From positions 20,848 to 84,847 of the IMG/VR virus record IMGVR_UViG_3300045988_147489: a stretch of DNA of 64,000 nt. The stretch is one strand, 5' to 3'. The position numbers and the translations under genes are program-made. This stretch comes from a virus. Its lineage: Duplodnaviria > Heunggongvirae > Uroviricota > Caudoviricetes. Positions 9,068 to 45,638 of the stretch are shown piece after piece; position 1 is the first letter of the stretch; the number at the start of each line of letters is the position of its first letter. A model generated the notes under the pieces. It saw only the letters and a program-made list of their open reading frames with translations. It made no database searches and had not been told where the DNA came from.

Positions 9068-9766
9068 ATGGGTATTAGAGCTGATATTCAGAGTTTATCG
9101 CCTTCTGCGCTCATTGAGTTGTTCGAGTTGGATATGTCGGTGACAACCTCCGGCGGCAAGTTGTATTTCCATGCCGGCACCAACGGGCTTAGCCAGCCAA
9201 TTGTCTGGCAGGGAGTTTCCTATGAGCCGTGGCCAATTAAAGCGTCTGGCTTTGATAAAAGCGGTCAGGGAACACTTCCTCGTCCAAAGATTCAGGTTTC
9301 CAACTACGACGGTGTAATTTCTGCCGAGCTGCAGGCCAATGACGATCTGATTGGCTGCAAAATCATTCGCAAGATGACGCTGGCACGTTTTCTGGACGCG
9401 GTGAACTTTCCGGATGGAAACCCGACTGCAGACCCAAGTCAGCATTTTGCTGATGAAATGTGGTTCGTCGAACAGAAGACCCTGGAGACGCACCAGTATG
9501 TCGAATTCGAGCTGTCCAGCGTCTTAGATCTGATGGGCGTTCAACTGCCGTATCGTCAGATCATCAAAAACAGCTGCCCGTGGAAATATCGCGGAACAGA
9601 GTGTGGTTACACCGGCCCCTATTTCGACAAAAACAACCAGCAAACCTCTTTGGCCGGCGCCGACTACTGCACCAAGCGTTACGACGCCTGTAATGCTCGC
9701 CGCAACTACTTCGCGAATGGCGTTATTCATTTTGGCGGATTTATTGGGGCGACACGATATGAGTAA
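9068..9766 (+). CDS. minor tail protein (lambda gpL-like)
   Basis: contains ARFLDAVNF and WKYRGTECGYTGP, which match my recollection of conserved gpL segments. Confidence 0.8.
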   Translation: MGIRADIQSLSPSALIELFELDMSVTTSGGKLYFHAGTNGLSQPIVWQGVSYEPWPIKASGFDKSGQGTLPRPKIQVSNYDGVISAELQANDDLIGCKIIRKMTLARFLDAVNFPDGNPTADPSQHFADEMWFVEQKTLETHQYVEFELSSVLDLMGVQLPYRQIIKNSCPWKYRGTECGYTGPYFDKNNQQTSLAGADYCTKRYDACNARRNYFANGVIHFGGFIGATRYE

Positions 9767-10556
9767 CCAGACGTTACCTGAGCTGGGCTCAGAAGTCATG
9801 CAGGATATCTATCGCTGCGCTATCCAACGTTACCCGAATGAAGCGTGTGGCTTTCTTGTGCGCACACAGGGTGAGAAATATCGCTTTATGGAAGCGATGA
9901 ATGTCTCTGAAACGCCACGTGAGGATTTTGTCATGCGTGCCAGCGACATTATTGCGGCCGAAGATGCTGGGGAAGTGATCGCTATTTGGCACTCTCACGT
10001 TGAGCGCAGCGCAGAGGCGTCAGACCCGGATCGCTCCGGGTGCGAGGCGACGGAACTACCGTGGATGATTCTGGCAATTCGCAAAAATGTGGAAAGCGAT
10101 ATGCCATTCCACTTTAGCGAAATGAACGTCATTTATCCGTGTGGTTTTGAGATGCCCTACCTCGGGCGCCCATACGTATTCGGTGTGTTTGATTGCTGGA
10201 TGCTGTGCCGCGATTACCTAAAGCGTGAATTTGACGTTGAGCTGAATGCAAACGCCCACCTGCATATTCCTTCTTGGTACACGGGGGACAACGACATCCT
10301 CGACCAGAACTACCGAAATGAAGGACTTGTCCGCATGGCGCCGGGGACGGAACCCCAGCGCGGCGACATCTTCTTCATCCAGTACGGGAAAATGCCAGAT
10401 CACTGCGCGGTATACATCGGCGACGGCATGATCATGCATCACCAGATCGACCGTCTCAGCTGTCGGGCTTATTACGGTGGGATGTATCAGAAGCACACGA
10501 CGCATCACCTGCGTCACAGGGATTTACTCAAGGGAGACGAGACGTGTCTGAATTAG
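9759..10556 (+). CDS. tail assembly protein (lambda gpK-like), JAMM/MPN plus NlpC/P60 domains
   Basis: ATG overlaps gpL stop (ATGAGTAA); HSHVERSAEASDPD is a JAMM metal motif; C-terminal Cys/His region (FDCWMLCRDY). Confidence 0.75.
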   Translation: MSNQTLPELGSEVMQDIYRCAIQRYPNEACGFLVRTQGEKYRFMEAMNVSETPREDFVMRASDIIAAEDAGEVIAIWHSHVERSAEASDPDRSGCEATELPWMILAIRKNVESDMPFHFSEMNVIYPCGFEMPYLGRPYVFGVFDCWMLCRDYLKREFDVELNANAHLHIPSWYTGDNDILDQNYRNEGLVRMAPGTEPQRGDIFFIQYGKMPDHCAVYIGDGMIMHHQIDRLSCRAYYGGMYQKHTTHHLRHRDLLKGDETCLN

Positions 10557-11155: not shown

Positions 11156-11171
11156 GGGAAGTTTTTTGAAC

Positions 11172-14100: not shown

Positions 14101-17100
14101 CTGCGGCCATTCAGAAAGAGACGAATGACCGTATTGCAGATGTTAATGACGCAGCCAAGCAAGCGGCCGACCAACTGCTGAGCGCGAAGAATGAGCTGAA
14201 AACCTCTATCGATAGCTTGTCTGAGGTTGTGACCTCCGGTGACGAAAACCTCGCGCGACAGATCTCGCAGATTGCCGCTGGCACAGGGGAACAGTTTGAC
14301 TCTCTGAAAATCTGGTATTTCGACCAGGACGCTGAAGGCTGGACGGAAGATGATAATGGCTACACGCCAATGAGCGTCACCAGCGATGGCTGGCTGAAAG
14401 CGAACAATCCGACCTCAACCTGTCGTTCCCCTAACGGCTTGACGATCGATGCCCATGCTTATCGTTTCATTAAGATGCGCATTAAAAAGGTTGGCAACCC
14501 AACCTGGAACGCCAAAATGTTCTGGATCGGCGCTGATGAAACCGGCTGGAATGCTGGTCGCTCCGTGGTTATCAATGAACCGGAATACGATGACAAGGGT
14601 ATTGCGATTCTGACCCTGCACGACCTTGAGTGGCGAGATTCGACAACGATTCGTCGTTTCCGCTTCGATTTCACTTCAGGTCAGGATACGGACAATTACC
14701 TGTTATTCGACTGGATTGCTGTCGGTCGACCGACGCCGGGCGCAGGCATGGCCGCGTTACAGGAAGAGCAGCAGGCTCGTGCGAATGCAGATACCGCCGA
14801 AGCGCAGGCGCGCAGCACATTGGCTGCACAAATCCGCGGTTCATCTGAAAGCGGAAATCTGGACGACATTCGTTCTGGCCTGATCTATCAGGAGAAAAAT
14901 GCTCGTATCACCGCCGATGCTGCGGAAGCGAGTGCGCGTGAATCCCTGCAGACTGAATTCAACAGAAACAAAGCCTCTGTTGCAGAAGAGCTGCATACGC
15001 TGTCCACTGAACAAGCTTCCCAGGCAAGCAAGATTACCGGGTTGCAAACAAGCCTTGGCCAGAAGGCCGATGCCAGTGCAGTACAGACAATTTCCCAGAA
15101 GGTTGAAGAGCAGGGCAACACCCTTAAATCACAAGGTGCGGCATTGTCTACGCTGGATAATCGCGTAGGAAGTGTTGAGTCTGGTGTATCTGCGAATAGC
15201 AAGGCGATCACGGGTCTGCAGTCGACCGTAACCCAGCAGGATAAAACCCTTAGCAGCCAGAGTGAAAGCATCACCACCCTGAATAACTCGCTGAGCGATA
15301 TCCAGAGCGATACCGATACTGCCAAAAGCAACCCGAGTAATTTGCTGGTTAACGCCTCCTTTGAGCGTGACCTGGCAGGGTGGTCTGCAGGGAACAGCGT
15401 ATCCAATGTTATCAAAGCGAGCGCGCCCCATTCTGGTAGCAAAATTCTTGTTTGCGCCGCTGGCACGGTGCAAATCACGCAATCTGTAAGCGTCGTCGAA
15501 GGGCGGACATACAAGCTGTCCTCTTTTGTGCGGTGCACCACTGATGCGGTGATCAGCAGCCCTGGCAACAACAAACTGCGTATTGGCGCGGCTACGTTGC
15601 TCAAAGAGATTCCGATCCGTCCGGAGAATCTGCCCAAAGATGAAACATGGAAGGAGGTCTCTGATACCTGGAAGGCGACGCTGACCGGTAAAGTTGACGT
15701 ATCGATCATGTCTTCTCTCAAAACCGGTTCTCAGTACTTCGATGATGTTGGTTTTGTTGACGTCACTGATGCTCTGGCGATTGAGGCGAACGCCAGTGCC
15801 ACCAATGCTTTGACCTCTCGGGTATCGTCTGTTGAGGGCACCATCACAAGTCAGGGGCAACAGATCACTTCGATGCAGAACAGTATCAAGAACAAAGCTG
15901 ACGCCTCAGCTGTGACTAATCTGGCAAACCGCGTAACTGCTGCCGAAAATCAGATCTCCAGCCAGTCCCAGAGCATCACCAGCCTGTCAAATTCGCTGGA
16001 TAACGCCAATGCTGATGCGGATGCCTCGAAAGCGATCATCGGCAACATGCTCAAAAACAACTCTTTTGAACGTGGTTTCGAAGGTTGGGAGTATGTTGGT
16101 TGGACTCTGCTGGAGGCCCAAAACCCCAAATCGGGGAAATACATCATCCAGGCGGGCAAACTGGCCTCTGGCGGTGACTCGGGCTGCAACCAAACGATCG
16201 AGCTGCAGGCTGGCAAGACTTATCGTATCGGCGCATGGGTTCGCAAATCCGCTGACTTCGCGATTAATAATGCCGGCAACAACAAAATTAGCCTTCGAAA
16301 CGCAGATCTTACGCCAATAAAGGATATCCCGATCACTGGCGCCGGGCTGTCGACGAACTGGGCGCTTATTAGCGGCGAGTATACGCCAGCCAAAACCGCG
16401 AGCGTGGTTGTGTCTCTGCGCGCAAGTGTCGCTTCAGGCTATATGTATCTCGATGACGTCTTCTGCGTTGACGTGAGCAATGAGAAAGCGATTGATGCGA
16501 CGTCCAATGCGTTATCAACCCTCAACAGCACCGTGACCCAGCAGGGAAAAGACATTACGTCTAACTCCAACAGCATCACTTCGCTGTCAAACCAGATGGT
16601 TAACGGCCGCCAGAACATGTGGGTGCGTAGCGTATACAACGTACAACTGGCGAACAATACCACTGAGCCGACCTTTAGCGATATCAACGGTAAGGCGCCA
16701 ATCTCGATCGATGAGGTTCCTGACGCGGCAAAACTGGACTTTGCGAGCGCCGGCAGTTACGTGATCGCGCATTACAAAGCCTTCGTGAAAGTCAATGCTG
16801 ATACCACCATCACTATGGCACCAGGGTCTCGTGTTTTTGATGATACGGGCGCCGTGTACGTGAACGGTGTTAGGGTTGCCTTTGGTAATGCGAGCTGGAA
16901 TACGGTTAGCTTTGATCTGAAAGCTGGCTGGAGCACGGTTGAGTTCTTGGTGAACCAATGGACTGGTCAGGCTTACATTAACCTCGGCTTTAAACTGTCC
17001 GAGAAGGTAGCCCAGCTGAATTCTGCTCTTGGGATGAACGCGCTTTCGAATGCCATTAGCGCCGTCACCTCAAACGTCAGCACCGTAGGTGATCGCGTCA

Positions 17101-20100
17101 CGAGCACCTCGCAGAGCGTTACTGATCTGCGAAACAGCCTCGAACAGACCAACGCTAATCTGGCGAATAAGGCAGATGCACAGGCGCTGTCTACGCTGCA
17201 AAATACGGTCTCCAAGCAGGGGGATACGATTTCCAGCCAGGGTAACAGCATCACGAACCTGAATAACACCCTGACCGCTGCCAGAAACTCCGGTGACAAC
17301 CTGATCCCGAACTACGATTTCCTGCAGGGTGCAACTGCGTGGGATATCCAGTATCCGGCGGGCGTCGCTTTCGGCAACTTCGGTGATGGTAAGGCTGGGG
17401 TTAAACTGAACCGGACGACCACTACCAGCCCAGGCATCTTCTCCAACAACAACAAGCCGCTGCCGCTTAATGGTCAGCGCAAATATCGTGTTGTGGTTAA
17501 AGCCAAGGGCGTGTCCGGGGCGATGAACATGTTGATCCGGCGCCAGAACAAAATCGGCCAGACCGACAGCAATTATGAAGATAAAAACGTCACACTCACC
17601 AGTGAGTGGCAGACCATTACCTGGGAAACTGGGCTTACTGCCTCTAACGCTGATGGTCAGAACTTTAAGCTTTATGCGCACCCGGCTAATGCCGAAATCT
17701 GGGTTGATACCTTTAAGGTCTTTGATATCACGGATGAGGTGAAGATCAAGGCTAATAGCGATGCGCTGTCTACGTTGTCGAGCACGGTGACACAGCAGGG
17801 TGACAAGATCACCAGCCAGGGCAACAGCATCACTAAGTTGACCAATGACCTCGAGGCCGCTGACGCAAACATCGCGAAAAAGGCCGATCAGTCGGCAGTC
17901 ACTACGCTGACAGGTCGGGTAGAGAAGACGGAGTCCGGTCTGACGGCGGCGAACAGCAACATTACGTCGCTTAGCAGCTCTCTGAGCCAGCAATCCAAAC
18001 GCGGCGCTAATCTGCTTCCTGATGGCACTTTTGAAAGCTACGCGGTTGGCCATAATCTATCAAATAATCGCGTTATCGTTACCACTGATGACTCTCACGG
18101 TGGAAATAAGTGCATCCGTGTGACGCGTCCGAACGACTACAACGCCAACGCAACAGATAACAGCGATAACCATATTTTTAGCGGATTTCAGGTTCGCGAT
18201 AACGCAGTGTTCTACATGGAGTGCTGGGTTAAGCTGGATGCCAATAGCACAGCCATGGCCGAGAACACGCAGATCTCTATCGGTTTGTCGCTCCAGTATC
18301 AGGATAACTCGTGGCAGTGGCCGGCAGTAACTAAAGCTGCGAAAGATCTGTCTACAGCTCAATGGACGAAGGTTTCTGGTTACCTGAAATCAACGAAGAG
18401 CGGTATTAAGCAGGCAATGGTGAGGATTTCTATTCCTAACGTTAGCAGCGTTAAGGCGGGAAACTCATTCCTTATTGATGACCTGGTCATTACCGAAGTA
18501 ACTGATGCCTACAATGCGCAAAGTACAGCAGATGCTAACGCCAATGCGATTTCGACACTGGACTCGACCGTTTCCCAACAGGGCGACCAGATCACCAGTC
18601 AGGGTAACAGCATCACCAAACTGACAAATGACCTGGCAACGACCAATAACAACGTCAGTAAAAAAGCGGATCAGAGCGCTTTAAGCGTGTTGTCCGGGCG
18701 CGTCGATCAAACAGAATCGGGCTTATCCTCTGCGAATAGCAGTATCACTGCGCTTAATTCATCTGTACGCGCAGGGAATGCGACAAGTGGCGATTTGATT
18801 AGCAACCCGACATTTGACCCAGAGTTTAGTCAGATGGGCTTCACTGTGGTTCCCAGCTCGTCTGAGGGCGTGCCAGCCAATTGCCCATACGCTTATGTTG
18901 CACGCATTGCGGCTCGCGACCATCACCCAAATTTTGCTGCTATTCCGGCGACATTGGGGGATGTCTATGAAATGTCTGCTCTCGTCGCGTGTGGCACTGG
19001 CTCCGCTGATTTCAACCTGTATCTCGGAACCGCAACACGGCCAAGCGGCAGCGTGGGCGCGCCTCTGTCATCTGGCGGCAACCGCAAGGCGTCGGCCACA
19101 TGGCAGCGAGTAACCTGGCGTTTCAAAATTACTCAGGGGATTGTCGATCGCGGCTTCTTCCGTCCATTCCTGCAAATCAACCAGTCCAGCCCGTTCGGCA
19201 CCGTCTGGTATGTGACCGACTGGCATCTGCGGAACGTAACCGACTCCTCCAAAGTTCAGGATTCTCTCGATGCTACGGCGAAAGCGGTTGATTCGCTGAC
19301 CTCTACGGTAAATCAGCAGGGGGAGAATATCTCCAGCATTGGTACACGTACTACCAATCTTGAGAATAATTTGAGAACAACAAATGCAAACGTTGCTCAA
19401 AAAGCGGACGCCAATGCTCTGACGGCACTGACCAACCGTGTTACCCAGACCGAAAAAGACATTAACTCAACGAGTTCTTCTGTCACGAATCTGAACAACA
19501 AGGTTGATGCAATTTCTGTCGGCGGTACAAACCTGATCAAGAACTCCGGCGATATGACCGGCTGGTCGAACGTTGTCAGCGATACGTATCGTGGTAACGC
19601 GGTAATTGGCGCAACTGTAAAAGCCGGCTCCGGTTACAGGGATTTGCGGGAAATCACGCTTGAGTCGCCGGTCGATGCAGGTGAGTACGTTTACAGCTTC
19701 TATGCGAAAGGCGGTGTTGCTGGCCAGATTATGACGGCGTTCTTCTACAATCCGAACACTACAACGTCTATCGAGACCAGCCAGGGTGCGAAGGGTAACA
19801 ACAGTGATGGCCGTGCGCAGTTCACGCTGACCACTTCATGGGCCCGCTATTGGGTTAAGTGGAAACAGACACCTACCACGAGTACCAAGCGCCTGATTCT
19901 GTGTCGTATCGAGAGCAATACCTCCAAAGACCAGACGGTGTACATCAACAGTCCGAAGTTTGAGGTAGGTAACGTTGTTTCCGACTGGAACGAGTCTCCG
20001 TCTGATAGTGCCAGTGCGTCGGCTGTGGACTCGCTGACAACGAAAGTGAATCAGCAGGGCACTTCCATTAGCTCTATCGGAAATCGCACCACATCGTTGG

Positions 20101-23100
20101 AAAACGGGTTATCGACAGCTCAAAACAACATTGCCAAGAAGGCTGATGCTTCTGCATTGCAGGATCTCCGGAACACGGTGACATCTCAGGGTGATGATTT
20201 AACCGCGGCGAACAGCAGCATTACCAGCCTGCATGCCTCGATGAACCGTCGCACTGTGTTTACTGTCACTGCACGGGGTAATGGCAACAGCGTTACCCAT
20301 GGGGTGTTTGATGAAAGCGGCAAGAATCTGTTTACCCCTGGTCGCAGCTGGGCGCTGGTCACTTTTGCAAAACACAGCGACGGATCAACGGTGATTGCGA
20401 CCTCCAAAACATACGATGTCTTTGGCAGCGCGAATAATGGCGCCACGATGTCGGCTGATATCGAGGCACTGGCCAGTGGGACTTACGTTTGCGTCCTGAC
20501 ATTCGATGAGCCAACTGGCAACCGAGGTAAGGTGTTGTCTGCCCTGGAATCTCTTGGTGGCACTTCCGAAGTCGTTAACTCTCTGCCGTATCGTGGCGCC
20601 TACATTCTCCTTGGCCGCAAAGGTATGAAGCCGGGCGATGGTCTGGAACTGCGTGCGCCAACCGGTGGCGACGGCACCGCCCACATTTCGACCTCAGTCG
20701 AGTTTGTGAACGGGGTAATGATGGGGCTGGGCGCCGCTGGTGGTGTGATGATGAAGGCTGATGCGAACGCATCTGCAATTACCACGCTCCAGAATACAGT
20801 GAAGACCCAAGGGGATAATATTGACTCCCTGAGCTCCTCGACAACAGCGCTGGAAAACAGCCTTGCGTCCAGTAACGCCAGCGTGGATGCAGCAAGCCAG
20901 ATCCCCGGTAACCTGATCGTAAACCCGTCTTTTGAGCGTGGTACGGAGGGCTACACTGGTTGGAGCGGTATTGCCACGGTGGCAACGCTGCAGGTTCCAC
21001 ATCTTGGCACCAAAGCCGCCAAACTAGCGGCGGGTGGTTCTGCAGGCGTGGGCCAGAAGATCTCCTTCAAAAAGGATCGGTCGTACAAAATTGGTATTTG
21101 GGCAAAGCAGGACCCTAATACCACCATTCAGTCGACCGACAACACAAAATTCCGTGTGGCTGACGGTACTGGCCTGATTGCAAGTAAGGTTTATGGTCCG
21201 TTCACCTCGAACTGGCAGGAGGTGTCATGGACATGGAAGGCGACAAAGGATGTCCTTGCTGACGTTCAGTTCACTGCTTTCTTGTCAGCCGGCGCGATGT
21301 ACTTTGATGATTTTTACGTCGTCGATGTGACCGACTCAGTTGAAACTCAGGCGAACTCGAGTGCGATCACGAAGCTCGATAGTCGTGTGACCAAGACAGA
21401 GAATGACATCACCAGCCAGGGCAGCCAGGTTACGCAACTTAAGAATGACCTTGCTACCACAAACACAAATGTTTCGAAGAAAGCGGATGCAGCTGCGTTA
21501 ACGGCATTAACGAACCGCGTCACGCAGAATGAGAAAGAAATTGGAACCCAGAGCAGCCAGACAACTTCGCTCAAAAACTCTTTGAGCACTGTTCAGGCAA
21601 TGGGAAGCAACCCGTGGTTTGATGGTTCTCTGGAGACGTACTCCGAAAACCAGCAGATCAGCGGCTCGCGCGCGGTCGTCGTCAGCTCTCAGAAACGAAG
21701 CGGAACGAAGTCGTTGCGTGTTTCCCGCGGCGCCGGTGAGGGCGGAAACAGCGATAAAACCATCGGTAAGTGGATTGCTCTGCGTGAAAATGCGGTATTC
21801 CGCATTGAACTCTGGGCGATGATGCCGGCAGATCAGTCGCCATCATCCGGGTGGTCAACGCTCGTTGGTTTGCAGACCCAAAACGCTGCCAACAACAATA
21901 ACTGGCCGACGGCAATCACTATCAATGAAGCCGCATTGGGTGCAAGAGGCGCATGGAAGAAATTCACCGGTACGCTCCGTGTAGCCGCTGGCCACACTCG
22001 CGGCGCATTTTGGGTATCTACCCGCGGCACAACTGGCACTGGTACACCGGGGTATGATCTGTATATCGATGACGTTGTTGTCACCGATATCACCGACGCA
22101 AAAGAGGCTCAAGATTCGGCTAATTCGAACGCATCCGCGCTCACCAGCCTTACCTCACGTGTTACCAATGTAGAAGGGCAGGTGACATCCCAGGCGTCTC
22201 AGCTGTCCTCTTTGACGTCCCAGGTGAATGATGCGTCTTCGAAGGTTGATCAGATGGCGCAAACCATCACCAACAACGAGAAAACGCAGTCGTCGCTGAA
22301 TACCAGCTTGCAGTCGCAAATTGATGCGCAGGCATCGGCAAACATCAAGAACCAGACGGAGTTGAATAACGCCACCACTTCGATGGCGGCAATTAAATCA
22401 ACTCAGCAGACTCAGGCCACAACGATTAGTGCACTGTCTCAGCAGCAAACGAATTTAACGGCCCAGGTAGGAGGCCAGTCAGCCGAGCTGCAGGAGCTGA
22501 AGAAAACGGTTGTTGAAAACGGCAACGTTAACAGCACCTGGATGGTCAAAATGGAAACCAACAGCAACGGTAAAAAGTATGCTGCTGGTATAGCTTTAGG
22601 TATCGATGGCAAAAATTTGCAGAGCCAGTTTCTGGTTCAGACTGATCGCTTCGGCTTAATCAACACCTCTAACGGGAATACGACTACACCTTTCGTTATC
22701 GAAAATGGCGTTGCGTATATTAATGCCGCTGTCATTAAAGATGGCTCGATCACCAATGCGAAAATTGGAGGCGAAATCCGTTCTGACAATTTCGTTAATG
22801 GTTCAAATGGCTGGAGAATTGGAAAAGACGGTAGTTCACAGTTCAACAATGCGATATTCAGAGGTCATATTGAAGCGCGCAGTGGTACGTTCAAAGGAAC
22901 CCTGGAAGCTCAAAACTTTATTGGTGATATCGCTGTAGCTCGGCGTTATGCGGGTTTATCGTTCCGTCGTAACAACACCGTACAGCGTGATGGTCGTTAC
23001 CAGAACCGCGGATACGGTATGACTATTGTGCTAAGTTGCACCCTGATATATCAGGTTACTGGGGGGAATGAGGATCGTAACGGTTATATTGTTGAAATGA

Positions 23101-23330
23101 CATTTAACGTTGGCGGTCAGGAGGCAACTCGCAGTTTCCCGATCAACCCGCGAATGAATATGGGCTCCTACTCGATGGAGTTTCGTTTTGCAGCGGATAT
23201 TCCAGGCAACTATGACAACGTCCCGTTCTTTGTAAGAGCACGTGGTCGGGATGCTACTTGGAACTACCAGTGTTATGTAGAAAACATCACTGCCACTGCT
23301 TTCCGTACAAACAGCAACTCATTCAGCTAA
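11172..23330 (+). CDS. giant host-specificity / central tail fibre protein (gpJ-like N-terminus with repeat-expanded extension)
   Basis: single ORF of about 4050 aa; N-terminal about 800 aa has gpJ-like layout including an FN3-like segment; rest is repeated modules; TTG at 11166 is an alternative start. Confidence 0.85.
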   Translation: MDQFKKKRLPLLIAGAGGKKSSGSSRTPVEADDTVNSRAMASILDLLGEGVVGGLINGAKSIFIDGVALENEDGSFNYSGVTWDFRDGSQDQSPMPGFDFVETPKAVNTQLKTTNAVTVAIDNDDADRVRVIMKFPSLRSIDKKTGDTNGTSVQFKFQLANGNGSFYDVIATGESSSDVKLTAKKTGVYYRSYEIQLPKPGRAYKVRVLRLSADSNDQYLFNDTWVDSIGEIVDTPMNYPNSVLVGLKVNSEQFGSSMPSRSYLIRGLKIRVPSNYDENTNTYNGVWDGTFKLLSSSNPAWILFDLLTNARYGLGKFVSESMIDLGQLYQIGRYCDEEVDDGFGGKEKRFAINTQITSRQDAYRLIQDIAGAFRGMVFWAGGMVNIMQDSPSDPVMLFTNANVKDGLFTYKGSARKDRPSVALITYNNKQDGYKQNVEYVEDQEAMARYGERKTEAVAFGCTSRGQAHRVGLWLLYTARMESDMITFTAGLDASFLMPGETVLIQNKYRAGKRNSGRIVSFTKNSITLDAPVSLKKSGSFIRIINQEGKIVERDINETGDNITKVTFKTALATAEQPVANGVWTITEPDLVPMRARVVAIAQGETPGSFDITVVQNNASKYQAIDNGAALVPENTTVLDPTYSKPSNLVISEGTYLSSPGNLSVKLMLAWEGKSPEYWVSWRRSDEGNVSNWQSARATEEQYEIVNVAENGRYDFQLYSVSFGGKKSEIITAVYQVKGTMTPPGAPTSLTAVGDYRNVVLNWVNPDSVDLAQINVYASKTNKLDTATLIAQAATTTFTHAGLGDNETWYYWIRAVNKRGMVGQPNSNLGTEATTRDVLSFLKDKITSSELGKELLDEIDSKATQEAVDNAIGEVQNSVNESIQQVENDLAQTSSEIKAQVDSVNQSLKEDIKTVNQTIVDNIDAVNQTINTNISNVNSQIEAAKQSIKDGDAALSQEIKNAQSSLTTSLSQTSKDLTAAIQKETNDRIADVNDAAKQAADQLLSAKNELKTSIDSLSEVVTSGDENLARQISQIAAGTGEQFDSLKIWYFDQDAEGWTEDDNGYTPMSVTSDGWLKANNPTSTCRSPNGLTIDAHAYRFIKMRIKKVGNPTWNAKMFWIGADETGWNAGRSVVINEPEYDDKGIAILTLHDLEWRDSTTIRRFRFDFTSGQDTDNYLLFDWIAVGRPTPGAGMAALQEEQQARANADTAEAQARSTLAAQIRGSSESGNLDDIRSGLIYQEKNARITADAAEASARESLQTEFNRNKASVAEELHTLSTEQASQASKITGLQTSLGQKADASAVQTISQKVEEQGNTLKSQGAALSTLDNRVGSVESGVSANSKAITGLQSTVTQQDKTLSSQSESITTLNNSLSDIQSDTDTAKSNPSNLLVNASFERDLAGWSAGNSVSNVIKASAPHSGSKILVCAAGTVQITQSVSVVEGRTYKLSSFVRCTTDAVISSPGNNKLRIGAATLLKEIPIRPENLPKDETWKEVSDTWKATLTGKVDVSIMSSLKTGSQYFDDVGFVDVTDALAIEANASATNALTSRVSSVEGTITSQGQQITSMQNSIKNKADASAVTNLANRVTAAENQISSQSQSITSLSNSLDNANADADASKAIIGNMLKNNSFERGFEGWEYVGWTLLEAQNPKSGKYIIQAGKLASGGDSGCNQTIELQAGKTYRIGAWVRKSADFAINNAGNNKISLRNADLTPIKDIPITGAGLSTNWALISGEYTPAKTASVVVSLRASVASGYMYLDDVFCVDVSNEKAIDATSNALSTLNSTVTQQGKDITSNSNSITSLSNQMVNGRQNMWVRSVYNVQLANNTTEPTFSDINGKAPISIDEVPDAAKLDFASAGSYVIAHYKAFVKVNADTTITMAPGSRVFDDTGAVYVNGVRVAFGNASWNTVSFDLKAGWSTVEFLVNQWTGQAYINLGFKLSEKVAQLNSALGMNALSNAISAVTSNVSTVGDRVTSTSQSVTDLRNSLEQTNANLANKADAQALSTLQNTVSKQGDTISSQGNSITNLNNTLTAARNSGDNLIPNYDFLQGATAWDIQYPAGVAFGNFGDGKAGVKLNRTTTTSPGIFSNNNKPLPLNGQRKYRVVVKAKGVSGAMNMLIRRQNKIGQTDSNYEDKNVTLTSEWQTITWETGLTASNADGQNFKLYAHPANAEIWVDTFKVFDITDEVKIKANSDALSTLSSTVTQQGDKITSQGNSITKLTNDLEAADANIAKKADQSAVTTLTGRVEKTESGLTAANSNITSLSSSLSQQSKRGANLLPDGTFESYAVGHNLSNNRVIVTTDDSHGGNKCIRVTRPNDYNANATDNSDNHIFSGFQVRDNAVFYMECWVKLDANSTAMAENTQISIGLSLQYQDNSWQWPAVTKAAKDLSTAQWTKVSGYLKSTKSGIKQAMVRISIPNVSSVKAGNSFLIDDLVITEVTDAYNAQSTADANANAISTLDSTVSQQGDQITSQGNSITKLTNDLATTNNNVSKKADQSALSVLSGRVDQTESGLSSANSSITALNSSVRAGNATSGDLISNPTFDPEFSQMGFTVVPSSSEGVPANCPYAYVARIAARDHHPNFAAIPATLGDVYEMSALVACGTGSADFNLYLGTATRPSGSVGAPLSSGGNRKASATWQRVTWRFKITQGIVDRGFFRPFLQINQSSPFGTVWYVTDWHLRNVTDSSKVQDSLDATAKAVDSLTSTVNQQGENISSIGTRTTNLENNLRTTNANVAQKADANALTALTNRVTQTEKDINSTSSSVTNLNNKVDAISVGGTNLIKNSGDMTGWSNVVSDTYRGNAVIGATVKAGSGYRDLREITLESPVDAGEYVYSFYAKGGVAGQIMTAFFYNPNTTTSIETSQGAKGNNSDGRAQFTLTTSWARYWVKWKQTPTTSTKRLILCRIESNTSKDQTVYINSPKFEVGNVVSDWNESPSDSASASAVDSLTTKVNQQGTSISSIGNRTTSLENGLSTAQNNIAKKADASALQDLRNTVTSQGDDLTAANSSITSLHASMNRRTVFTVTARGNGNSVTHGVFDESGKNLFTPGRSWALVTFAKHSDGSTVIATSKTYDVFGSANNGATMSADIEALASGTYVCVLTFDEPTGNRGKVLSALESLGGTSEVVNSLPYRGAYILLGRKGMKPGDGLELRAPTGGDGTAHISTSVEFVNGVMMGLGAAGGVMMKADANASAITTLQNTVKTQGDNIDSLSSSTTALENSLASSNASVDAASQIPGNLIVNPSFERGTEGYTGWSGIATVATLQVPHLGTKAAKLAAGGSAGVGQKISFKKDRSYKIGIWAKQDPNTTIQSTDNTKFRVADGTGLIASKVYGPFTSNWQEVSWTWKATKDVLADVQFTAFLSAGAMYFDDFYVVDVTDSVETQANSSAITKLDSRVTKTENDITSQGSQVTQLKNDLATTNTNVSKKADAAALTALTNRVTQNEKEIGTQSSQTTSLKNSLSTVQAMGSNPWFDGSLETYSENQQISGSRAVVVSSQKRSGTKSLRVSRGAGEGGNSDKTIGKWIALRENAVFRIELWAMMPADQSPSSGWSTLVGLQTQNAANNNNWPTAITINEAALGARGAWKKFTGTLRVAAGHTRGAFWVSTRGTTGTGTPGYDLYIDDVVVTDITDAKEAQDSANSNASALTSLTSRVTNVEGQVTSQASQLSSLTSQVNDASSKVDQMAQTITNNEKTQSSLNTSLQSQIDAQASANIKNQTELNNATTSMAAIKSTQQTQATTISALSQQQTNLTAQVGGQSAELQELKKTVVENGNVNSTWMVKMETNSNGKKYAAGIALGIDGKNLQSQFLVQTDRFGLINTSNGNTTTPFVIENGVAYINAAVIKDGSITNAKIGGEIRSDNFVNGSNGWRIGKDGSSQFNNAIFRGHIEARSGTFKGTLEAQNFIGDIAVARRYAGLSFRRNNTVQRDGRYQNRGYGMTIVLSCTLIYQVTGGNEDRNGYIVEMTFNVGGQEATRSFPINPRMNMGSYSMEFRFAADIPGNYDNVPFFVRARGRDATWNYQCYVENITATAFRTNSNSFS
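13680..22520 (+). repeat. internal tandem modules within the J gene (about 11 copies of coiled-coil segment plus CBM-like beta-sandwich domain)
   Basis: recurrent peptide blocks such as STVTQQGDKITSQGNSITKLTNDL...KKADQSA and domain starts such as NASFERDLAGW, NNSFERGFEGW, NPSFERGTEGYTGW; matching DNA repeats e.g. CAGGGTAACAGCATCAC at about 17235, 17818, 18603; coordinates approximate. Confidence 0.7.
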
Positions 23331-23386: not shown

Positions 23387-24826
23387 ATGGCAATGTATGA
23401 AGTTGGCACCATAACGGGTGCTGCAAACCAGGCAAAGGTTACAGGTATTTCCACTAAGTGGTCGGAGACCGCCCTGGGTATTCAAGAGGGTTCGATTCTT
23501 GTCATTTATCGCAATGGAAGTGCCGATCTGTATGCCATCAAATCCGTTAATAACGACACTCAACTGACCCTGACGAGAAACATTACAACAGCTTTTTCTG
23601 GTGCGAAATATGGAATTATCACATCAGAAACAGCCAGCACATCGTCTTTTGCTAATCAACTCGCCAGTGCATTCACTCTGTGGCGTAATGTTGTCCAGGG
23701 GTGGTCTACAGCACTAACAGGTAGTGGCAATATTACAATAACAGACCCTTTAACGGGTGTATCTGTGACTGTTCCAGCAATTTCAGGAATGGCGAAAGCG
23801 TCCGATCTCACAGCACTTAGCAACTCGCTGAAAGATGTAGCGAAGACTACAACGGCAAACACATGGACGCAGGCGCAGACGTGGAACGCAGCATCTACGT
23901 TTAAAAATAACCTTACGGTGAACGGCACTTTTACAGTAAATGGGAATTTCTACGGCAAGCAGCTTGCTGGAGGCCACATAGAGTTAACAGGGGCGACCCC
24001 TTATATCGACTTTCACCACGGCAACACCACAACAGACTACACACATCGAATTATTACTGAGAATGGGGCATTGGCTGTTTATCCGGGCTTACGCGTCCGT
24101 GGTGGATTGGGGATTTATGGTGTAGCTACGCAATACGGAGATCAGTACGGGCAGGGATTTATCACCCGTCTTAACACAGATCCAGGTAACGTAGCTAACG
24201 GCACAATCATTGCCTCTCCACGCGTCACAACTAGGTTCAACACTCGCGGCAGTGACACAAATGTTGACGGCGGACAGGGGGCCATGTGGTTTGAGGAGCA
24301 GGTGGGGACGAACCATAGGCTGGTATTCATGCTTGGTGGTTTCAGTCAGCCTGTCCAATATTGGCACCACTTGCCTGATGGGCGGATCTATAGTAGTTCT
24401 CGCGGCGATGTTGCATTTAACGGGACGTCCGACGAACGGTTGAAACATAGTATAGAACCGACTGACGGCCATTTGTCAGTCGATCGCATTCGTCAGCTTG
24501 AGCTGGTGACGTTCGTCTATAACGATGACGAGCAGGAACGAGTACGCCGCGGGATTATTGCGCAGCAGGCTCAGCTGGTCGACAAACAGTATGTTAAGCA
24601 GATTAACACATCGTATATTCTCAACGGTGAGAAAGTGGACGATGACCGTCTGCAACTCGATAATAACGTTATTCTAATGGATACATTGGCGGCGGTTAAA
24701 GTACTGATTCAGCGAGTTGAAGAACTTGAGAATAAACTTAACTCATCAGAAGGGAGCGACGCCATAAATACAAACCAGAATACCTTCGATACAGGCGTGG
24801 CCATGAGAAGTGAGCAATCAAATTAA
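23387..24826 (+). CDS. side tail fibre protein with C-terminal intramolecular chaperone (peptidase S74-type) domain
   Basis: AAGGAAG RBS; C-terminal NGTSDERLKHSIEP matches the autoproteolytic chaperone signature as I recall it. Confidence 0.7.
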   Translation: MAMYEVGTITGAANQAKVTGISTKWSETALGIQEGSILVIYRNGSADLYAIKSVNNDTQLTLTRNITTAFSGAKYGIITSETASTSSFANQLASAFTLWRNVVQGWSTALTGSGNITITDPLTGVSVTVPAISGMAKASDLTALSNSLKDVAKTTTANTWTQAQTWNAASTFKNNLTVNGTFTVNGNFYGKQLAGGHIELTGATPYIDFHHGNTTTDYTHRIITENGALAVYPGLRVRGGLGIYGVATQYGDQYGQGFITRLNTDPGNVANGTIIASPRVTTRFNTRGSDTNVDGGQGAMWFEEQVGTNHRLVFMLGGFSQPVQYWHHLPDGRIYSSSRGDVAFNGTSDERLKHSIEPTDGHLSVDRIRQLELVTFVYNDDEQERVRRGIIAQQAQLVDKQYVKQINTSYILNGEKVDDDRLQLDNNVILMDTLAAVKVLIQRVEELENKLNSSEGSDAINTNQNTFDTGVAMRSEQSN

Positions 24827-24916: not shown

Positions 24917-25240
24917 ATGTCAAACGAGATGGCAGGCGTGACGCCAGAGCAGGTGGAGCGCATTGCCGCAATTGTTGCGCGAGAAGTCGTAGGAAAATTA
25001 AGTAAGGAGCTTCGCGATGATATTGGCCAGGAGGTCAACGATCAGCTGCGAACCTACTTTGGCGATATGACTCCGGCGCAACATAGCATTCAGCATTCCA
25101 ACCTGGACAAACTTCTTAATCGGCTCGACACGATTTCAAGCGGGTTCTTTGGAGGCATTATTTCCAAGATTACCTCGTTCCTGATCACCGTGCTGCTTTT
25201 GGGTTTGGCCGCTTATGGCGTGAAAAATGGACTGCAATAA
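24917..25240 (+). CDS. small membrane protein, possible holin
   Basis: GGAGGA RBS before ATG 24917; single C-terminal transmembrane helix; position at head of lysis cassette. Confidence 0.35.
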   Translation: MSNEMAGVTPEQVERIAAIVAREVVGKLSKELRDDIGQEVNDQLRTYFGDMTPAQHSIQHSNLDKLLNRLDTISSGFFGGIISKITSFLITVLLLGLAAYGVKNGLQ

Positions 25241-25253
25241 CAGGAGAACAAGG

Positions 25254-25946
25254 ATGAGTACTCCAAGAGGCATTCGTAACAACAACCCTGGCAACCTGGA
25301 TAAAGGGTCGCCGTGGCAAGGGTTAGTAAACAACCCGTCGGAACCGCGGTTCTGTACTTTTAAAGACCCCGTATGGGGGATTCGAGCACTGACAGTAACG
25401 CTCATCACCTACCATGATAAGCGCCGTGCAAAAGATGGCTCCAGCATCGATACGATCCGCGAAGTCATCGAGCGTTGGGCGCCGCCACACGAAAACAACA
25501 CCGCCGCCTATATCAATGAGGTTTCTAAAGCCGTTGGCGTGACGCCGGACATGATCATCGATCTGCATGACTACAATACTATGCGGCCGCTGGTGGAGGC
25601 GATTATTCGTCATGAGAACGGTCGTGGCCCTTTGAAAACACTCAACAGCTGGTATTCGGCCGAAGTTATTGACGAAGGTATGCGTCGCGCCGGCGTCGTT
25701 AAACCGGTAACTGCAGTGAAAGCCGTACCTGTCACGAAAGAAACTGCAGGCGCAACGGTGACTGCAGGTATCGGTATTGCGCAGCTGGCGGACGTAATGC
25801 CGCAGATCTCCGTTGCGATGGATAAGGCCCAGGGACATATTACCAGCGGGGATACCGTTCGCATTATCTTCGGTATTGCGACCATTGTTGTCGCCGGCTT
25901 TATTGCCTGGTCGCAAGTTCGTAAGCATCAGGCAGGAGTGGTGTAA
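25254..25946 (+). CDS. putative lysis protein (endolysin candidate) with C-terminal membrane anchor
   Basis: globular N-terminal domain starting MSTPRGIRNNNPGNL; C-terminal hydrophobic helix IIFGIATIVVAGFIAW; sits between holin-like gene and Rz/Rz1 pair; enzymatic class not established. Confidence 0.35.
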   Translation: MSTPRGIRNNNPGNLDKGSPWQGLVNNPSEPRFCTFKDPVWGIRALTVTLITYHDKRRAKDGSSIDTIREVIERWAPPHENNTAAYINEVSKAVGVTPDMIIDLHDYNTMRPLVEAIIRHENGRGPLKTLNSWYSAEVIDEGMRRAGVVKPVTAVKAVPVTKETAGATVTAGIGIAQLADVMPQISVAMDKAQGHITSGDTVRIIFGIATIVVAGFIAWSQVRKHQAGVV

Positions 25947-25948
25947 CC

Positions 25949-26200
25949 ATGAACGGCAGCCTGCTTTCAAAGGTCAAATCGACCATCATGACTTTGGCTG
26001 CCGTCTTCTCTGTGCTCGTTGGGGCGTACACCTGGGGTGGACGTGCTGCCCGGCGGGCCATGGAAGAAAAGGCGCAGAGAGAAACCAACAAACGGCTTCA
26101 AGGCACAGTGGATGTGAAAAATGAGACGATTAATGAAGTCAGGACTAAGGATGCTTCTGCCGTTCATCGCGAGCTTCGCGATAAGTGGATGCGTGATTAA
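25949..26200 (+). CDS. Rz-like inner-membrane spanin candidate
   Basis: N-terminal TM helix followed by charged helical region; overlapped by lipoprotein ORF in another frame. Confidence 0.5.
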   Translation: MNGSLLSKVKSTIMTLAAVFSVLVGAYTWGGRAARRAMEEKAQRETNKRLQGTVDVKNETINEVRTKDASAVHRELRDKWMRD

Positions 26201-26348
26201 ACCCCAGACCGTGGGCGTACAATTCTGCGATGGGGCTAACCCTATCTACATCAGCAAGGACGACGCCCTGACAGAAGAAACTGAGAGGGAAATCCTGATC
26301 CACAACACGCTGGGTGAGCGAATCTGTGATTGGGGGAAAGGTACATAA
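26121..26348 (+). CDS. Rz1-like outer-membrane lipoprotein spanin candidate
   Basis: signal peptide with lipobox ISGC; starts inside 3' end of the Rz-like gene in +1 frame; alternative ATG at 26133. Confidence 0.5.
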   Translation: MRRLMKSGLRMLLPFIASFAISGCVIKPQTVGVQFCDGANPIYISKDDALTEETEREILIHNTLGERICDWGKGT

Positions 26349-26360
26349 GGAACTGACGTA

Positions 26361-26400
26361 AGATGCGCTTGCGTTGATGTGAGGCGCATCTGTTTCTTCT
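26361..26400 (+). terminator. terminator-like hairpin after lysis cassette
   Basis: AGATGCGC...GCGCATCT stem followed by T-rich tract. Confidence 0.45.
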
Positions 26401-26589: not shown

Positions 26590-27009
26590 ATGCTAAATTA
26601 TCATGACAATACGCGTTCTATGCAGACGATCCGCACCAATACTGCGGTTATCGACAGCTTTCCTATGCGTATTCACAACAGTGAAGACGCAGTAGAAGTG
26701 CGACGTATGTTGTGCCGTGAATCAGCTAACCGCCAGCACTTCATCGTCACTTTTAAGAGCGATGTGGCGCGTGCCGAAAAGATCTCTAATTCTACGTCAC
26801 TGGTTAAACCGTTGGCCGAGGTTGTCACTAACGGTAAACGAACCTCTTTTGTTTTAGATGTTGCTGAACAATATCCTGACTTGAAGTGTTTAGATCGTGA
26901 TATTTCTTCACGAATCAAACAAGTTGTAGAGTCTTTTATGAAGAAATTCTGTAAAATCGATGATATGGAACCATCAACGGCACAGAATACTTCATGGCAC
27001 CATCTCTAA
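26590..27009 (+). CDS. hypothetical protein
   Basis: ORF from track; no motif recognised. Confidence 0.4.
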   Translation: MLNYHDNTRSMQTIRTNTAVIDSFPMRIHNSEDAVEVRRMLCRESANRQHFIVTFKSDVARAEKISNSTSLVKPLAEVVTNGKRTSFVLDVAEQYPDLKCLDRDISSRIKQVVESFMKKFCKIDDMEPSTAQNTSWHHL

Positions 27010-27767
27010 TTGGTCAGGCGAACAGATTAATCCCTGAAATAGAAGACTACAGCAAGGTCTTGTCTGAAATGCCGAGAGCGACGAGAATTATCGCTCTCGG
27101 TGAGTTCTATTTTATCTCCCGAGGTTTCGATCTAATTCGATTTACCGAATACGAGCTTGTTGATTCGGCCTATGAACGCTGTATTGTTGGCGAGTGTCTT
27201 GAGTCATGTGATCCTGATTACCAAGAGCAGGAAGTTAAGCGACTCAAACGTGCTGGTTACACACCTCTTGAGATAGGAGCAGAAATTGAATCCTACAAGT
27301 TGCATGTGGGGCAGCCAGTCCAAACAGTCTTCCGCGTGGCCTACTGCGAGTTTCCAATCAAGGATAAATCTGGAGTAAAAGTCAGCGCCAAGCAGATTAG
27401 AGGGGTTTTTACTCATGCTGATTATATGGGATTAGGCATCGCAAGTTTTGCTTACCTTTATCTCGTAGATAAGTATCAGTACTTGGTTTGCGATACGTTA
27501 CAGACGGTAAAAGGCGCAACTCTTTGGGCTGTGAGTATGCGCAAACATGGACTGGTCGAAATTTACGATACGAAGAACGAAAATTTTATAGAGGAATTGG
27601 GTGAGGATGCCTGTGGCGTAAGTGGTTTTATTCCGTGGGATATCGGTAAGTCTGACGGAGGCCAGATGCGAAGACGTGAAGAGTGGGGGACTAATAAAAT
27701 CAATCTCACCCCAGGTGCTTGTACTCATATAGTGAACATTCTGAGTAAACGATCTATGAATCAATAA
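26994..27767 (+). CDS. hypothetical protein
   Basis: ORF from track; followed by clear terminator. Confidence 0.45.
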   Translation: MAPSLIGQANRLIPEIEDYSKVLSEMPRATRIIALGEFYFISRGFDLIRFTEYELVDSAYERCIVGECLESCDPDYQEQEVKRLKRAGYTPLEIGAEIESYKLHVGQPVQTVFRVAYCEFPIKDKSGVKVSAKQIRGVFTHADYMGLGIASFAYLYLVDKYQYLVCDTLQTVKGATLWAVSMRKHGLVEIYDTKNENFIEELGEDACGVSGFIPWDIGKSDGGQMRRREEWGTNKINLTPGACTHIVNILSKRSMNQ

Positions 27768-45543: not shown

Positions 45544-45638
45544 ACAAAACAGCCTTAATGATAAGTTACTACTTACGATAGATGATGATATATTTATATA
45601 AGAAGTTGAACGCTCATTAGAGAACAAAGGAAAAACGC

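Follow-up and report, generated by a model that had tools for sequence, protein, structure and literature searches.

A four-gene host-lysis module with a predicted Enc34/M4Lys-type endolysin and a putative overlapped spanin pair in an SSU5-like phage-plasmid

The interval 24917–26348 on the plus strand of the DNA analyzed here, a viral stretch of 64,000 nucleotides (the window), holds four genes that make up the host-lysis module of an SSU5-like phage-plasmid of Enterobacteriaceae, in which the gene for a small membrane protein is followed by that for a predicted cell-wall enzyme of the Enc34/M4Lys type and then by an overlapping pair of putative spanin genes. A sequence-only reading of this interval had proposed a lysis cassette with an atypical lysin candidate and an Rz/Rz1-like pair. 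That reading is correct, and the features it listed were all found where it had placed them, yet the cassette is already known: all of it has been described save for the function of the small first protein. The components of the module are as follows:

24917–25240, plus strand: 107-aa membrane protein, phrog_5093 (SD GGAGGA 5 nt upstream; PHROG profile matched end-to-end)
25254–25946, plus strand: predicted Enc34/M4Lys-type endolysin, 230 aa (PHROG 873, 7Q47 homology, alignments, AlphaFold model)
25254–25703, plus strand: predicted enzymatically active domain, residues 1–150, PHA02564/Enc34 ORF39 fold (phmmer, Foldseek, pLDDT)
25728–25745, plus strand: conserved motif P159-V-T-K-E-T164, linking the enzyme domain to the membrane module (invariant positions P159, T161)
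25749–25823, plus strand: weakly hydrophobic Gly/Ala/Ser/Thr-rich helix, residues 166–190 (Wimley-White, alignment, AF2)
25857–25916, plus strand: TM helix of the endolysin, residues 202–221, followed by the basic tail VRKHQAGVV (Wimley-White dG)
25949–26200, plus strand: putative i-spanin, 83 aa (N-terminal TM ~11–29, charged periplasmic tail of 52 residues, no Cys)
26121–26348, plus strand: putative o-spanin, 75 aa, or 71 aa from 26133 (lipobox ISGC at nt 26181–26192, PHROG 1275)
26370–26400, plus strand: terminator-like hairpin and T-rich tail at the operon end (stem 26370–26388 / 26376–26390, then TCTGTTTCTT)

Shine-Dalgarno sites are present in the cassette, and its intergenic gaps measure 13 nt between the first gene and the endolysin gene and 2 nt between the latter and the i-spanin gene. 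The immediate upstream neighbor is a Peptidase_S74 tail-fiber gene, with a lambda-like tail module on the same side, and parA, replication genes and Rep3 lie downstream. At the nucleotide level the cassette is 97% identical to Klebsiella phage-plasmids and 99.9% identical to E. coli pECAZ155_2, and it is present in at least 439 PLSDB plasmids, most of them from clinical Klebsiella. The same four genes are annotated in SSU5 and pJN2-26 as holin, endolysin, (hypothetical) and Rz1. Scans of all four proteins against Pfam and NCBIfam gave no significant match because models for these families are missing from those libraries.

By homology, the 230-aa protein is predicted to be a peptidoglycan glycosidase of the Enc34/M4Lys type. 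Its N-terminus reads MSTPRGIRNNNPGNL, and its start was placed at 25254 because AGGAG stands 7 nt upstream and homologues begin M-x-TPRG; the length of 239 aa given earlier belongs to an upstream ATG at 25227, which has neither a Shine-Dalgarno sequence nor support from homologues. The N-terminal segment RNNNPGN, previously singled out as conserved-looking, occupies residues 8–14, and the alignment bears its conservation out, with N11, P12, G13 and N14 invariant in a 34-sequence family alignment. Also invariant in the 34 homologues are W75, Y86 and E121, which align with Trp79, Tyr95 and Glu131 of the Enc34 endolysin, residues named as catalytically important in that enzyme (PMC8943055). Profile and structure searches agree in assigning the lysin candidate a muralytic, Enc34-type fold: the protein matches PHROG 873 ‘endolysin’ (E=5.6e-87), residues 2–153 match the crystallized Enc34 catalytic domain 7q47_A by phmmer (E=3.6e-56), and 7q47 gave the top Foldseek matches of the AlphaFold model (E=1e-15, TM 0.80, 60% identity), in which pLDDT is ~90 over residues 40–150. 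Among relatives, muralytic activity is known for the Enc34 domain and toxicity for the full-length Enc34 endolysin (PMC8943055), and M4Lys has N-acetylglucosaminidase activity and causes lysis that depends on its TMD and is independent of both the upstream gene and azide (PMC7143992).

The layout is indeed not that of a classical soluble lysozyme, as had been remarked, in that an N-terminal enzymatic domain is joined to a C-terminal membrane domain, an architecture known from Siskin, M4Lys and Enc34 (PMC6498227, PMC7143992, PMC8943055). The hydrophobic helix noted earlier near the C-terminus is single and strongly so, with a Wimley-White octanol dG of -7.2 kcal/mol for its best 19-mer; across the family the value averages -6.4 and is negative in 34/34 sequences. 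By the Wimley-White scale the proximal helix (residues 166–190) does not qualify as a TM helix in its own right, the best 19-mer averaging +4.7 kcal/mol and being positive in all 34 family members. The G/A/S/T fraction of this helix is 0.54, and AF2 places it, at low confidence, at 175–192. The basic tail at the C-terminus carries a net charge of +2 to +3, and 33 of the 34 family members have a tail with a net positive charge. Conservation in the membrane module as a whole matches that in the enzyme domain (invariant residues: P159, T161, A167, G174, A188, S198, G207 and Q221), and the module can be aligned with those of Redjac and SSU5. A derivation of the module from the small TM proteins that lie behind M15 endolysins was considered and set aside (hhalign probability ≤1.3%). 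The resemblance between the two is a positional analogy only.

The endolysin begins with a hydrophilic N-terminus, and no signal or SAR segment was found among the 19-residue windows starting within the first 45 residues (about the first 63), where KD19 reached at most 0.95. Since an N-terminal signal-anchor-release domain is absent and the sole TM helix is C-terminal, classification as a SAR endolysin was rejected. The distribution of charge, with a basic tail and an acidic loop, favors an N-out/C-in orientation, which would call for an export route for the 190-residue N-terminal part; the authors of the Siskin study predicted an N-in/C-in topology instead (PMC6498227). In the AlphaFold model of the full-length protein, the membrane module has pLDDT values of 37–69 and residues 156–201 fall below 50, so that a hairpin and a single pass are not discriminated. 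Our literature search for mechanistic work on endolysins with C-terminal TMDs or on ‘class IV’ holins found nothing later than the 2019–2022 papers.

The gene at 24917–25240, on which the sequence-only reading was silent, encodes the 107-aa protein, which the SSU5 and pJN2-26 annotations call ‘putative holin’ and which PHROGs lists as phrog_5093, ‘unknown function’. It is predicted to form three helices and carries a conserved YFGDM.P..H..QH motif with invariant G49, H56 and H60; a single C-terminal TM helix (~82–103, dG -8.6) is followed by the tail KNGLQ. AlphaFold returned helices only, with a pLDDT of 47.7. In its small size, its one TM helix and its position 13 nt from the endolysin gene, it agrees with the features by which holins are recognized, and comparison with described holin families in Pfam, NCBIfam and PHROG gave no similarity. 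Its tail is not of the charged hydrophilic kind. An apparent dual-start motif (M1/M5) was discarded, as Met5 is not conserved among homologues. The gene still adjoins the endolysin gene in the diverged relative L010, and in L009 two genes are inserted between them. In seven of nine look-ups, remote phrog_5093 relatives (23–43% identity) stand first in a cassette with a Peptidase_M15_3 endolysin, and one further look-up gave a cassette with a PHROG ‘holin’ and a PHROG 669 ‘endolysin’. Because its relatives head cassettes with three unrelated endolysin types, phrog_5093 appears tied to lysis, as a holin or a regulator; because they co-occur with other small membrane proteins, the role of the 107-aa gene may be that of a holin, an antiholin or something else.

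The strongest alternative is that the 107-aa protein is itself the true hole-forming holin, of a new class with a single, C-terminally anchored TM helix, and that the endolysin module is a mere tether, holding the enzyme inactive in the membrane until the holin fires, in what would be a C-terminal counterpart of the SAR-endolysin/pinholin scheme. SAR domains are rich in Gly, Ala, Ser and Thr, and helix 1 of the endolysin module resembles them in this respect. A tether-and-release scheme was also speculated on by the authors of the Enc34 study (PMC8943055). The gene is the first of its cassette, as are lambda S and P2 Y, its product is the only membrane protein there besides the endolysin and the spanins, and its phrog_5093 relatives stand directly upstream of soluble Peptidase_M15_3 endolysins, which need a holin because they have no TM segment. 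However, the M15 and PHROG-669 cassettes carry another small protein with 1–4 TM segments, one of which matches PHROG 8226 ‘holin’, and the 107-aa protein has neither a charged C-terminal tail nor a conserved dual start, both of them typical of holins. Moreover, the first gene of BSPM4, which has the same position and is non-homologous, neither lysed cells nor released the soluble enzyme domain, and lysis by M4Lys took place in its absence (PMC7143992). We regard a holin role as possible, though somewhat improbable.

On balance, we lean toward a regulator or antiholin-like role for the 107-aa protein over that of sole hole-former. Fitting such a role are its C-terminal anchor, a helical domain predicted to be cytoplasmic and the invariant G-x6-H-x3-H, as well as the place of phrog_5093 as leading gene in cassettes whose endolysins are of the Enc34, Peptidase_M15_3 or PHROG-669 type. 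A bolder proposal, which we make tentatively and consider unlikely as a whole, is that the C-terminal module of the endolysin is the hole-former, making the protein a natural endolysin–holin fusion, and that phrog_5093 represents an unrecognized, widespread class of lysis regulators and not a holin.

It is very improbable that the 230-aa protein serves infection as a peptidoglycan hydrolase of the virion (‘virion protein’ PHA02564) and is not a lysis enzyme. The domain does occur N-terminally in internal virion/ejection proteins of K1F-like podophages, and in tape-measure and tail-injection proteins (PHROGs 7182, 2276 and 992), and Gp29, a core protein of phage E1004 (PDB 9vvp), has it as well. 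Here, however, it belongs to a stand-alone protein with a C-terminal TM helix, whose gene is wedged, with gaps of only 13 and 2 nt, between those for a membrane protein and the spanin pair, and full-length homologues built in the same way, acting from inside the cell, either lyse E. coli or poison it. Nor was another endolysin found in the element. The window contains no second copy of the enzyme domain that we could find, and no other muralytic Pfam domain was detected in 30 window ORFs, which took in nearly all those of ≥150 aa outside the cassette, the sole related match being a lambda gpK-like NlpC/P60 tail protein. Likewise, the annotation of the 99.9%-identical plasmid pECAZ155_2 lists no lysozyme, transglycosylase or amidase over ~89% of the record, the remainder of which lies under the J-like tail gene. 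The earlier reservation, that the candidate might prove to have no muralytic fold and the true endolysin to lie elsewhere, thus finds nothing in its favor.

The evidence supports the assignment of the 83-aa and 75-aa proteins, by sequence and family, as a two-component spanin of the overlapped architecture, as had been proposed. The i-spanin matches PHROG 1026 ‘Rz-like spanin’ (E=1.7e-24) and the o-spanin PHROG 1275 ‘Rz-like spanin’ (E=5.2e-24), and the ‘Chi’ spanin family includes both SSU5 and Enc34 (Kongari et al. 2018). The N-terminal TM helix attributed to the 83-aa protein was recovered at residues 11–29 (dG -5.9), but its supposed coiled coil found no support in a simple heptad test of the 52-residue tail, in which the best a/d register was 0.40 hydrophobic versus 0.27 elsewhere. 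The gene for the lipoprotein lies in the +1 frame, starting, as previously described, inside the 3' end of the i-spanin gene and ending beyond it; the overlap is 80 nt from a start at 26121 or 68 nt from one at 26133, both starts being retained because homologues begin MKS (ATG 26133). Its lipobox is I21-S22-G23-C24, in agreement with the reported consensus [LVI][ASTVI][GAS]C, with Val and no Asp at +2, and the mature part of 52 aa has two further Cys. The periplasmic parts are thus short (52 + 52 residues), and the Cys count, none in the i-spanin and two conserved in the mature o-spanin, is the commonest combination reported and provides the periplasmic Cys expected for a homotypic disulfide. 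The i-spanin is 71% identical to that of SSU5 and 34% to that of Redjac, and the o-spanin is 61% and 48% identical, respectively, to the equivalent overlapped ORFs, with SGC and the two Cys invariant. That the 75-aa ORF arose by chance, beside an unrelated small membrane protein of 83 aa, is hardly credible: although PGAP does not list the ORF in pECAZ155_2, pJN2-26 is annotated with only a truncated 47-aa version and the i-spanin tail is very short and has no heptad pattern, both proteins match spanin PHROGs at E~1e-24, the +1-frame ORF is retained with its lipobox Cys and two other Cys in SSU5, Redjac and the metagenomic L010, and overlapped o-spanins are often under-annotated, 196 of 528 having been missed (Kongari et al. 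2018).

Taken together, the genes very probably form a late lysis operon of an SSU5-like phage-plasmid that acts on the three envelope layers in turn. The functional steps are transferred, for the endolysin from homologues at 54–60% identity and for the spanins by family membership. At the inner membrane, the enzyme, which has no N-terminal signal, would be held by its conserved C-terminal module, and this module (weak helix, true TM helix and basic tail) may itself give the endolysin access to the wall, by analogy with M4Lys; we take it as the route because in M4Lys the module is required and the upstream gene and SecA are dispensable. The 107-aa protein would be its partner in the membrane, one that fixes or holds back the moment of lysis. 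In the cell wall, the N-terminal all-helical domain of the 230-aa protein is expected, by homology, to cut murein, and once this has occurred the complex of i-spanin and o-spanin would disrupt the outer membrane.

As a discovery the cassette carries little weight: SSU5 already has it annotated, a crystal structure and biochemical work exist for the endolysin class, and the spanins belong to a catalogued family. The RefSeq pipeline calls the cassette genes ‘hypothetical protein’ and omits the o-spanin, an annotation that can be fixed. An inducible phage-plasmid in E. coli or Klebsiella would be a convenient genetic system for studying how a C-terminally anchored enzyme reaches the wall, and the link of phrog_5093 to lysis cassettes makes it a testable candidate for a new type of holin or antiholin.

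The closest known system is that of Salmonella phage SSU5 (SSU5_026-030, JQ965645), in which the four genes are identical in order and the proteins 95% (first gene), 90% (endolysin), 71% (i-spanin) and 61% (o-spanin) identical. Only the upstream neighbor differs, being the Peptidase_S74 tail fiber here and a cor-like gene in SSU5, and functionally there is no difference between the two cassettes. The same cassette occurs in the Klebsiella and E. coli SSU5-like phage-plasmids pJN2-26, vB_Kpn_1825-KPC53 and pECAZ155_2 at 97–99.9% nucleotide identity.

With the Enc34 ORF39/M4Lys/Siskin type the endolysin shares the catalytic Trp/Tyr/Glu, 60% identity to the solved domain (7Q47) and the succession of linker, weak helix, TM helix and basic tail; the proteins can be aligned over their full length (Redjac, 54% identity), and the endolysin gene likewise follows that of a small membrane protein and precedes overlapped spanin genes. 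The carrier here is a temperate phage-plasmid, whereas that type is found in chi-like flagellotropic siphophages; in addition, the window endolysin lacks the short Enc34 insertions PPKKNGVVENN and SPEDYDRAP, and the first gene with which it is paired is non-homologous. The putative ‘class IV’ holin of the chi-like phages (Siskin; Redjac, 108 aa; BSPM4 ORF_37) is also the first gene, with ~108 aa, one TM segment and, like the 107-aa protein, a helical soluble part of ~75 residues. The layout is mirrored, with the TM segment N-terminal in the chi-like protein and C-terminal in the 107-aa protein, and there is no sequence relationship; homology through circular permutation was considered and rejected (hhalign probability 0.2%). 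The Redjac first-gene protein is labeled ‘Rz-like spanin’ in PHROGs.

SAR endolysins that act with pinholins (P1 Lyz, phage 21 R21/S21) have in common with the window endolysin a tether in the inner membrane and a weak helix rich in Gly, Ala, Ser and Thr, and homologues of the window endolysin lyse cells without a holin when over-expressed. They differ in that the anchor is C-terminal here, with no N-terminal hydrophobic segment, and azide did not block lysis by M4Lys (PMC7143992); because the anchor is C-terminal, it cannot function as a Sec signal-anchor. Lastly, the i-spanin has 83 aa compared with 153 aa for lambda Rz, and the o-spanin gene is overlapped here and embedded in lambda. The architecture is that of the ‘Chi’ spanins and P2 LysB/LysC, an i-spanin with an N-terminal TM and a +1-frame lipoprotein gene that extends beyond it (Kongari et al. 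2018), and the canonical lipobox and the 0 + 2 periplasmic Cys are common to the ‘Chi’ spanins and the window pair.

The lysis cassette consists of four plus-strand genes set nearly without spacing, which follow a tail-fibre gene and run up to a terminator-like hairpin:

23387-24826, tail-fibre gene with a Peptidase_S74 chaperone domain, bordering the cassette on its 5' side
24917-25240 (+), first gene, 107 aa, SD GGAGGA
25254-25946 (+), endolysin, 230 aa, SD AGGAG, preceded by a 13-nt gap
25704-25946, linker and membrane module of the endolysin (residues 151-230)
25949-26200 (+), i-spanin, 83 aa, preceded by a 2-nt gap
26121 or 26133 to 26348 (+), o-spanin, 75 or 71 aa, in the +1 frame, overlapping the i-spanin by 80 or 68 nt
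26370-26390, terminator-like hairpin closing the cassette, then TCTGTTTCTT

The sequence-only reading of 24917-26348 had noted the lysin and the overlapping pair but left the first gene (24917-25240) undiscussed. Its coordinates and sequence features were correct apart from that omission and two further points: the lysin is 230 rather than 239 residues long, the larger figure counting from an upstream ATG that has neither a ribosome-binding site nor homologue support, and no support was obtained for the coiled coil ascribed to the 83-aa protein. The observation was confirmed and its interpretation as a lysis cassette is supported; the cassette is of an already-described type, found in hundreds of sequenced elements. 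A 215-aa ORF on the minus strand (25323-25970) spans nearly all of the endolysin gene; PGAP lists no gene at its position in the plasmid record pECAZ155_2, and codon composition is its most likely source.

The lysin matched no model in Pfam or NCBIfam. Profile and structure searches identified a muralytic fold in what had been called an atypical lysin candidate: residues 2-153 match, at E=3.6e-56, the catalytic domain solved by crystallography (PDB 7Q47) from the endolysin of Hafnia phage Enc34, the protein matches PHROG 873 'endolysin' (5.6e-87), and an AlphaFold model computed from 34 homologues, in which the enzyme domain is confident, had 7Q47 as its sole strong Foldseek match (E=1e-15, TM 0.80, 60% identity). 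Lysin residues E121, Y86 and W75 are invariant in the family alignment and are the counterparts of Glu131, Tyr95 and Trp79, which are catalytically important in Enc34, whose domain is muralytic and whose full-length protein is toxic (PMC8943055). The BSPM4 phage enzyme M4Lys acts as an N-acetylglucosaminidase and alone lyses E. coli, needing neither its upstream gene nor azide-sensitive Sec function; truncation of its C-terminal TM region abolishes lytic activity, and that region by itself is bacteriostatic (PMC7143992). This architecture of an enzyme with a C-terminal membrane region was first noted in phage Siskin (PMC6498227). The enzyme domain is found widely, in 802 phage records, among them some where it forms the N-terminus of K1F-like internal virion proteins. 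The full-length TM-bearing form was found in 182 phage records among the matches listed, and its protein clusters number well over 100.

The true endolysin does not lie elsewhere, a case that the sequence-only reading had named against itself, as searches of the window and of the pECAZ155_2 annotation yielded no rival. The domain profile detected no second copy in a six-frame translation of the window, Pfam detected no other muralytic domain in 30 window ORFs, a set that holds nearly every non-cassette ORF of 150 aa or more, and no lysozyme, transglycosylase or amidase is present in the PGAP annotation of ~89% of the pECAZ155_2 record, which includes all of its part beyond window coverage. The sole other peptidoglycan-related domain found in the window belongs to a lambda gpK-like tail protein (9603-10556; Prok-JAB and NlpC/P60), which is a virion tail component and not an endolysin.

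The overlapping pair had been read as a two-component spanin, and this holds: the 83-aa protein matches PHROG 1026 and the 75-aa protein PHROG 1275, both 'Rz-like spanin' (~1e-24), and each aligns with its counterparts in Salmonella phage SSU5 and Providencia phage Redjac. The o-spanin lipobox is indeed ISGC, which fits the consensus [LVI][ASTVI][GAS]C (Kongari et al.), and its Val at +2 is compatible with predicted sorting to the outer membrane. The o-spanin has two further invariant Cys and the i-spanin none, the commonest pattern in the survey of Kongari et al., which assigned both SSU5 and Enc34 to the 'Chi' spanin family. At 52 residues each in i-spanin and o-spanin, the periplasmic parts are short.

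Across the 34 homologues the C-terminal 70 residues of the endolysin are as conserved as the enzyme domain, with invariant P159 and T161 in the PVTKET linker followed by invariant A167, G174, A188, S198, G207 and Q221. Such conservation suggests that the linker and membrane module do something specific besides anchoring the enzyme. By the Wimley-White octanol scale, the last helix (residues 202-221) alone qualifies as a true TM segment, with a mean dG of -6.4 kcal/mol and negative values in 34/34 sequences; the helix before it is positive in 34/34, consists of Gly/Ala/Ser/Thr to 54% and contains a Pro that is nearly invariant. Its richness in Gly/Ala/Ser/Thr resembles SAR domains. The net charge of the tail behind the TM helix is positive in 33 of the 34, and the loop ahead of this helix is mostly net acidic. 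Based on these hydrophobicity and charge figures we favour a predicted single-pass N-out/C-in topology, for which an export route for the enzyme domain would be needed; the Siskin authors predicted instead a two-helix N-in/C-in hairpin (PMC6498227). The AlphaFold model (pLDDT <50 for residues 156-201) was of no help on topology. Comparison of the module with the small TM proteins of related cassettes showed no homology.

The first gene is the sole cassette part without a settled identity. Its N-terminal ~80 residues are predicted to be helical (low-confidence model), and a single C-terminal TM helix is followed by a five-residue tail. Close relatives occur only in SSU5-like elements (12 phage records, 31 protein clusters). 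Searched with a profile, 1.84 billion representative proteins yielded 58 relatives of ~100-140 aa at E<=0.001; all 37 that were scanned belong to phrog_5093 ('unknown function'), and none of these has a significant hit in Pfam. Common to these relatives are the C-terminal TM helix and the motif YFG(D/E)M.P..H..QH.R, with invariant G49, H56 and H60 (G-x6-H-x3-H). Among nine distant members whose neighbourhoods were looked up (23-43% identity), seven have a soluble Peptidase_M15_3 endolysin directly downstream, one lies upstream of PHROG 8226 'holin' and PHROG 669 'endolysin', and for the ninth the contig is too short to tell. Counting the Enc34-type cassettes, phrog_5093 therefore heads lysis cassettes of three unrelated endolysin classes, behaviour expected of a holin or antiholin. 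We lean towards a regulatory role, in which the endolysin's own membrane module would give access to the wall, because most phrog_5093 cassettes examined in detail hold another small protein of 1-4 TM segments and because M4Lys did without its own first gene, which is non-homologous to phrog_5093 (PMC7143992). In a Photorhabdus australis contig, two extra genes (107 and 220 aa; 4387-5372) separate the phrog_5093 gene from an Enc34-type endolysin, and a ParE toxin/DUF6290 pair lies just upstream. What the cassette still has to offer is the question of how this class of endolysin is exported, and the link of phrog_5093 to lysis.

Elsewhere in the window the gene content is consistent with an SSU5-like phage-plasmid: tape measure, M, L, K, I and a 4054-aa J-like protein form a lambda-like tail module, and there are genes for parA, a DnaB-like helicase, primase, ligase, a tyrosine recombinase, CobT/AAA_5, Pol III alpha, gp32, RecA and a Rep3 initiator. 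In the giant J-like tail tip protein (11166-23330), FNIII-A_GpJ, Phage-tail_3 and Phage_Tail_Tip domains occur together with an ILEI-like domain and with long coiled-coil-like inserts that match SlyX and Apolipoprotein. Amid the replication genes are a CobT-like VWA protein with its AAA_5 ATPase partner (43435-46874) and an SPFH/Band-7 protein (54920-55750). Two overlapping genes (139 and 257 aa; 26590-27767) without Pfam or NCBIfam match are located between the lysis operon and parA; pECAZ155_2 shares them, whereas other genes occupy the spot in pJN2-26 and SSU5, which marks it as a variable region.

Over the 1.65-kb cassette region, identity is 97% with phage-plasmids of Klebsiella (pJN2-26, vB_Kpn_1825-KPC53 and others) and 99.9% with two E. 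coli plasmids (~113-128 kb). In PLSDB the region is present in 439 plasmids, 309 of them from Klebsiella and nearly all typed 'non-mobilizable', and it is this cassette that the annotation gap concerns. PGAP labels the first gene, endolysin and i-spanin of pECAZ155_2 (NZ_CP019002.1) 'hypothetical protein' and omits the o-spanin; in pJN2-26 only a 47-aa Rz1 without signal peptide is annotated. SSU5 has the same four genes, annotated 'putative holin', 'putative endolysin', 'hypothetical' and 'putative Rz1'. Redjac has at 1656-1982 an unannotated first gene of 108 aa with an N-terminal TM helix and helical tail; kinship between such a chi-like first gene and ours was rejected, the two being unrelated. 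The Redjac gene is the equivalent of the Siskin 'class IV holin' but matches PHROG 7686 'Rz-like spanin' (E=2e-40), so that its functional label is inconsistent between sources.
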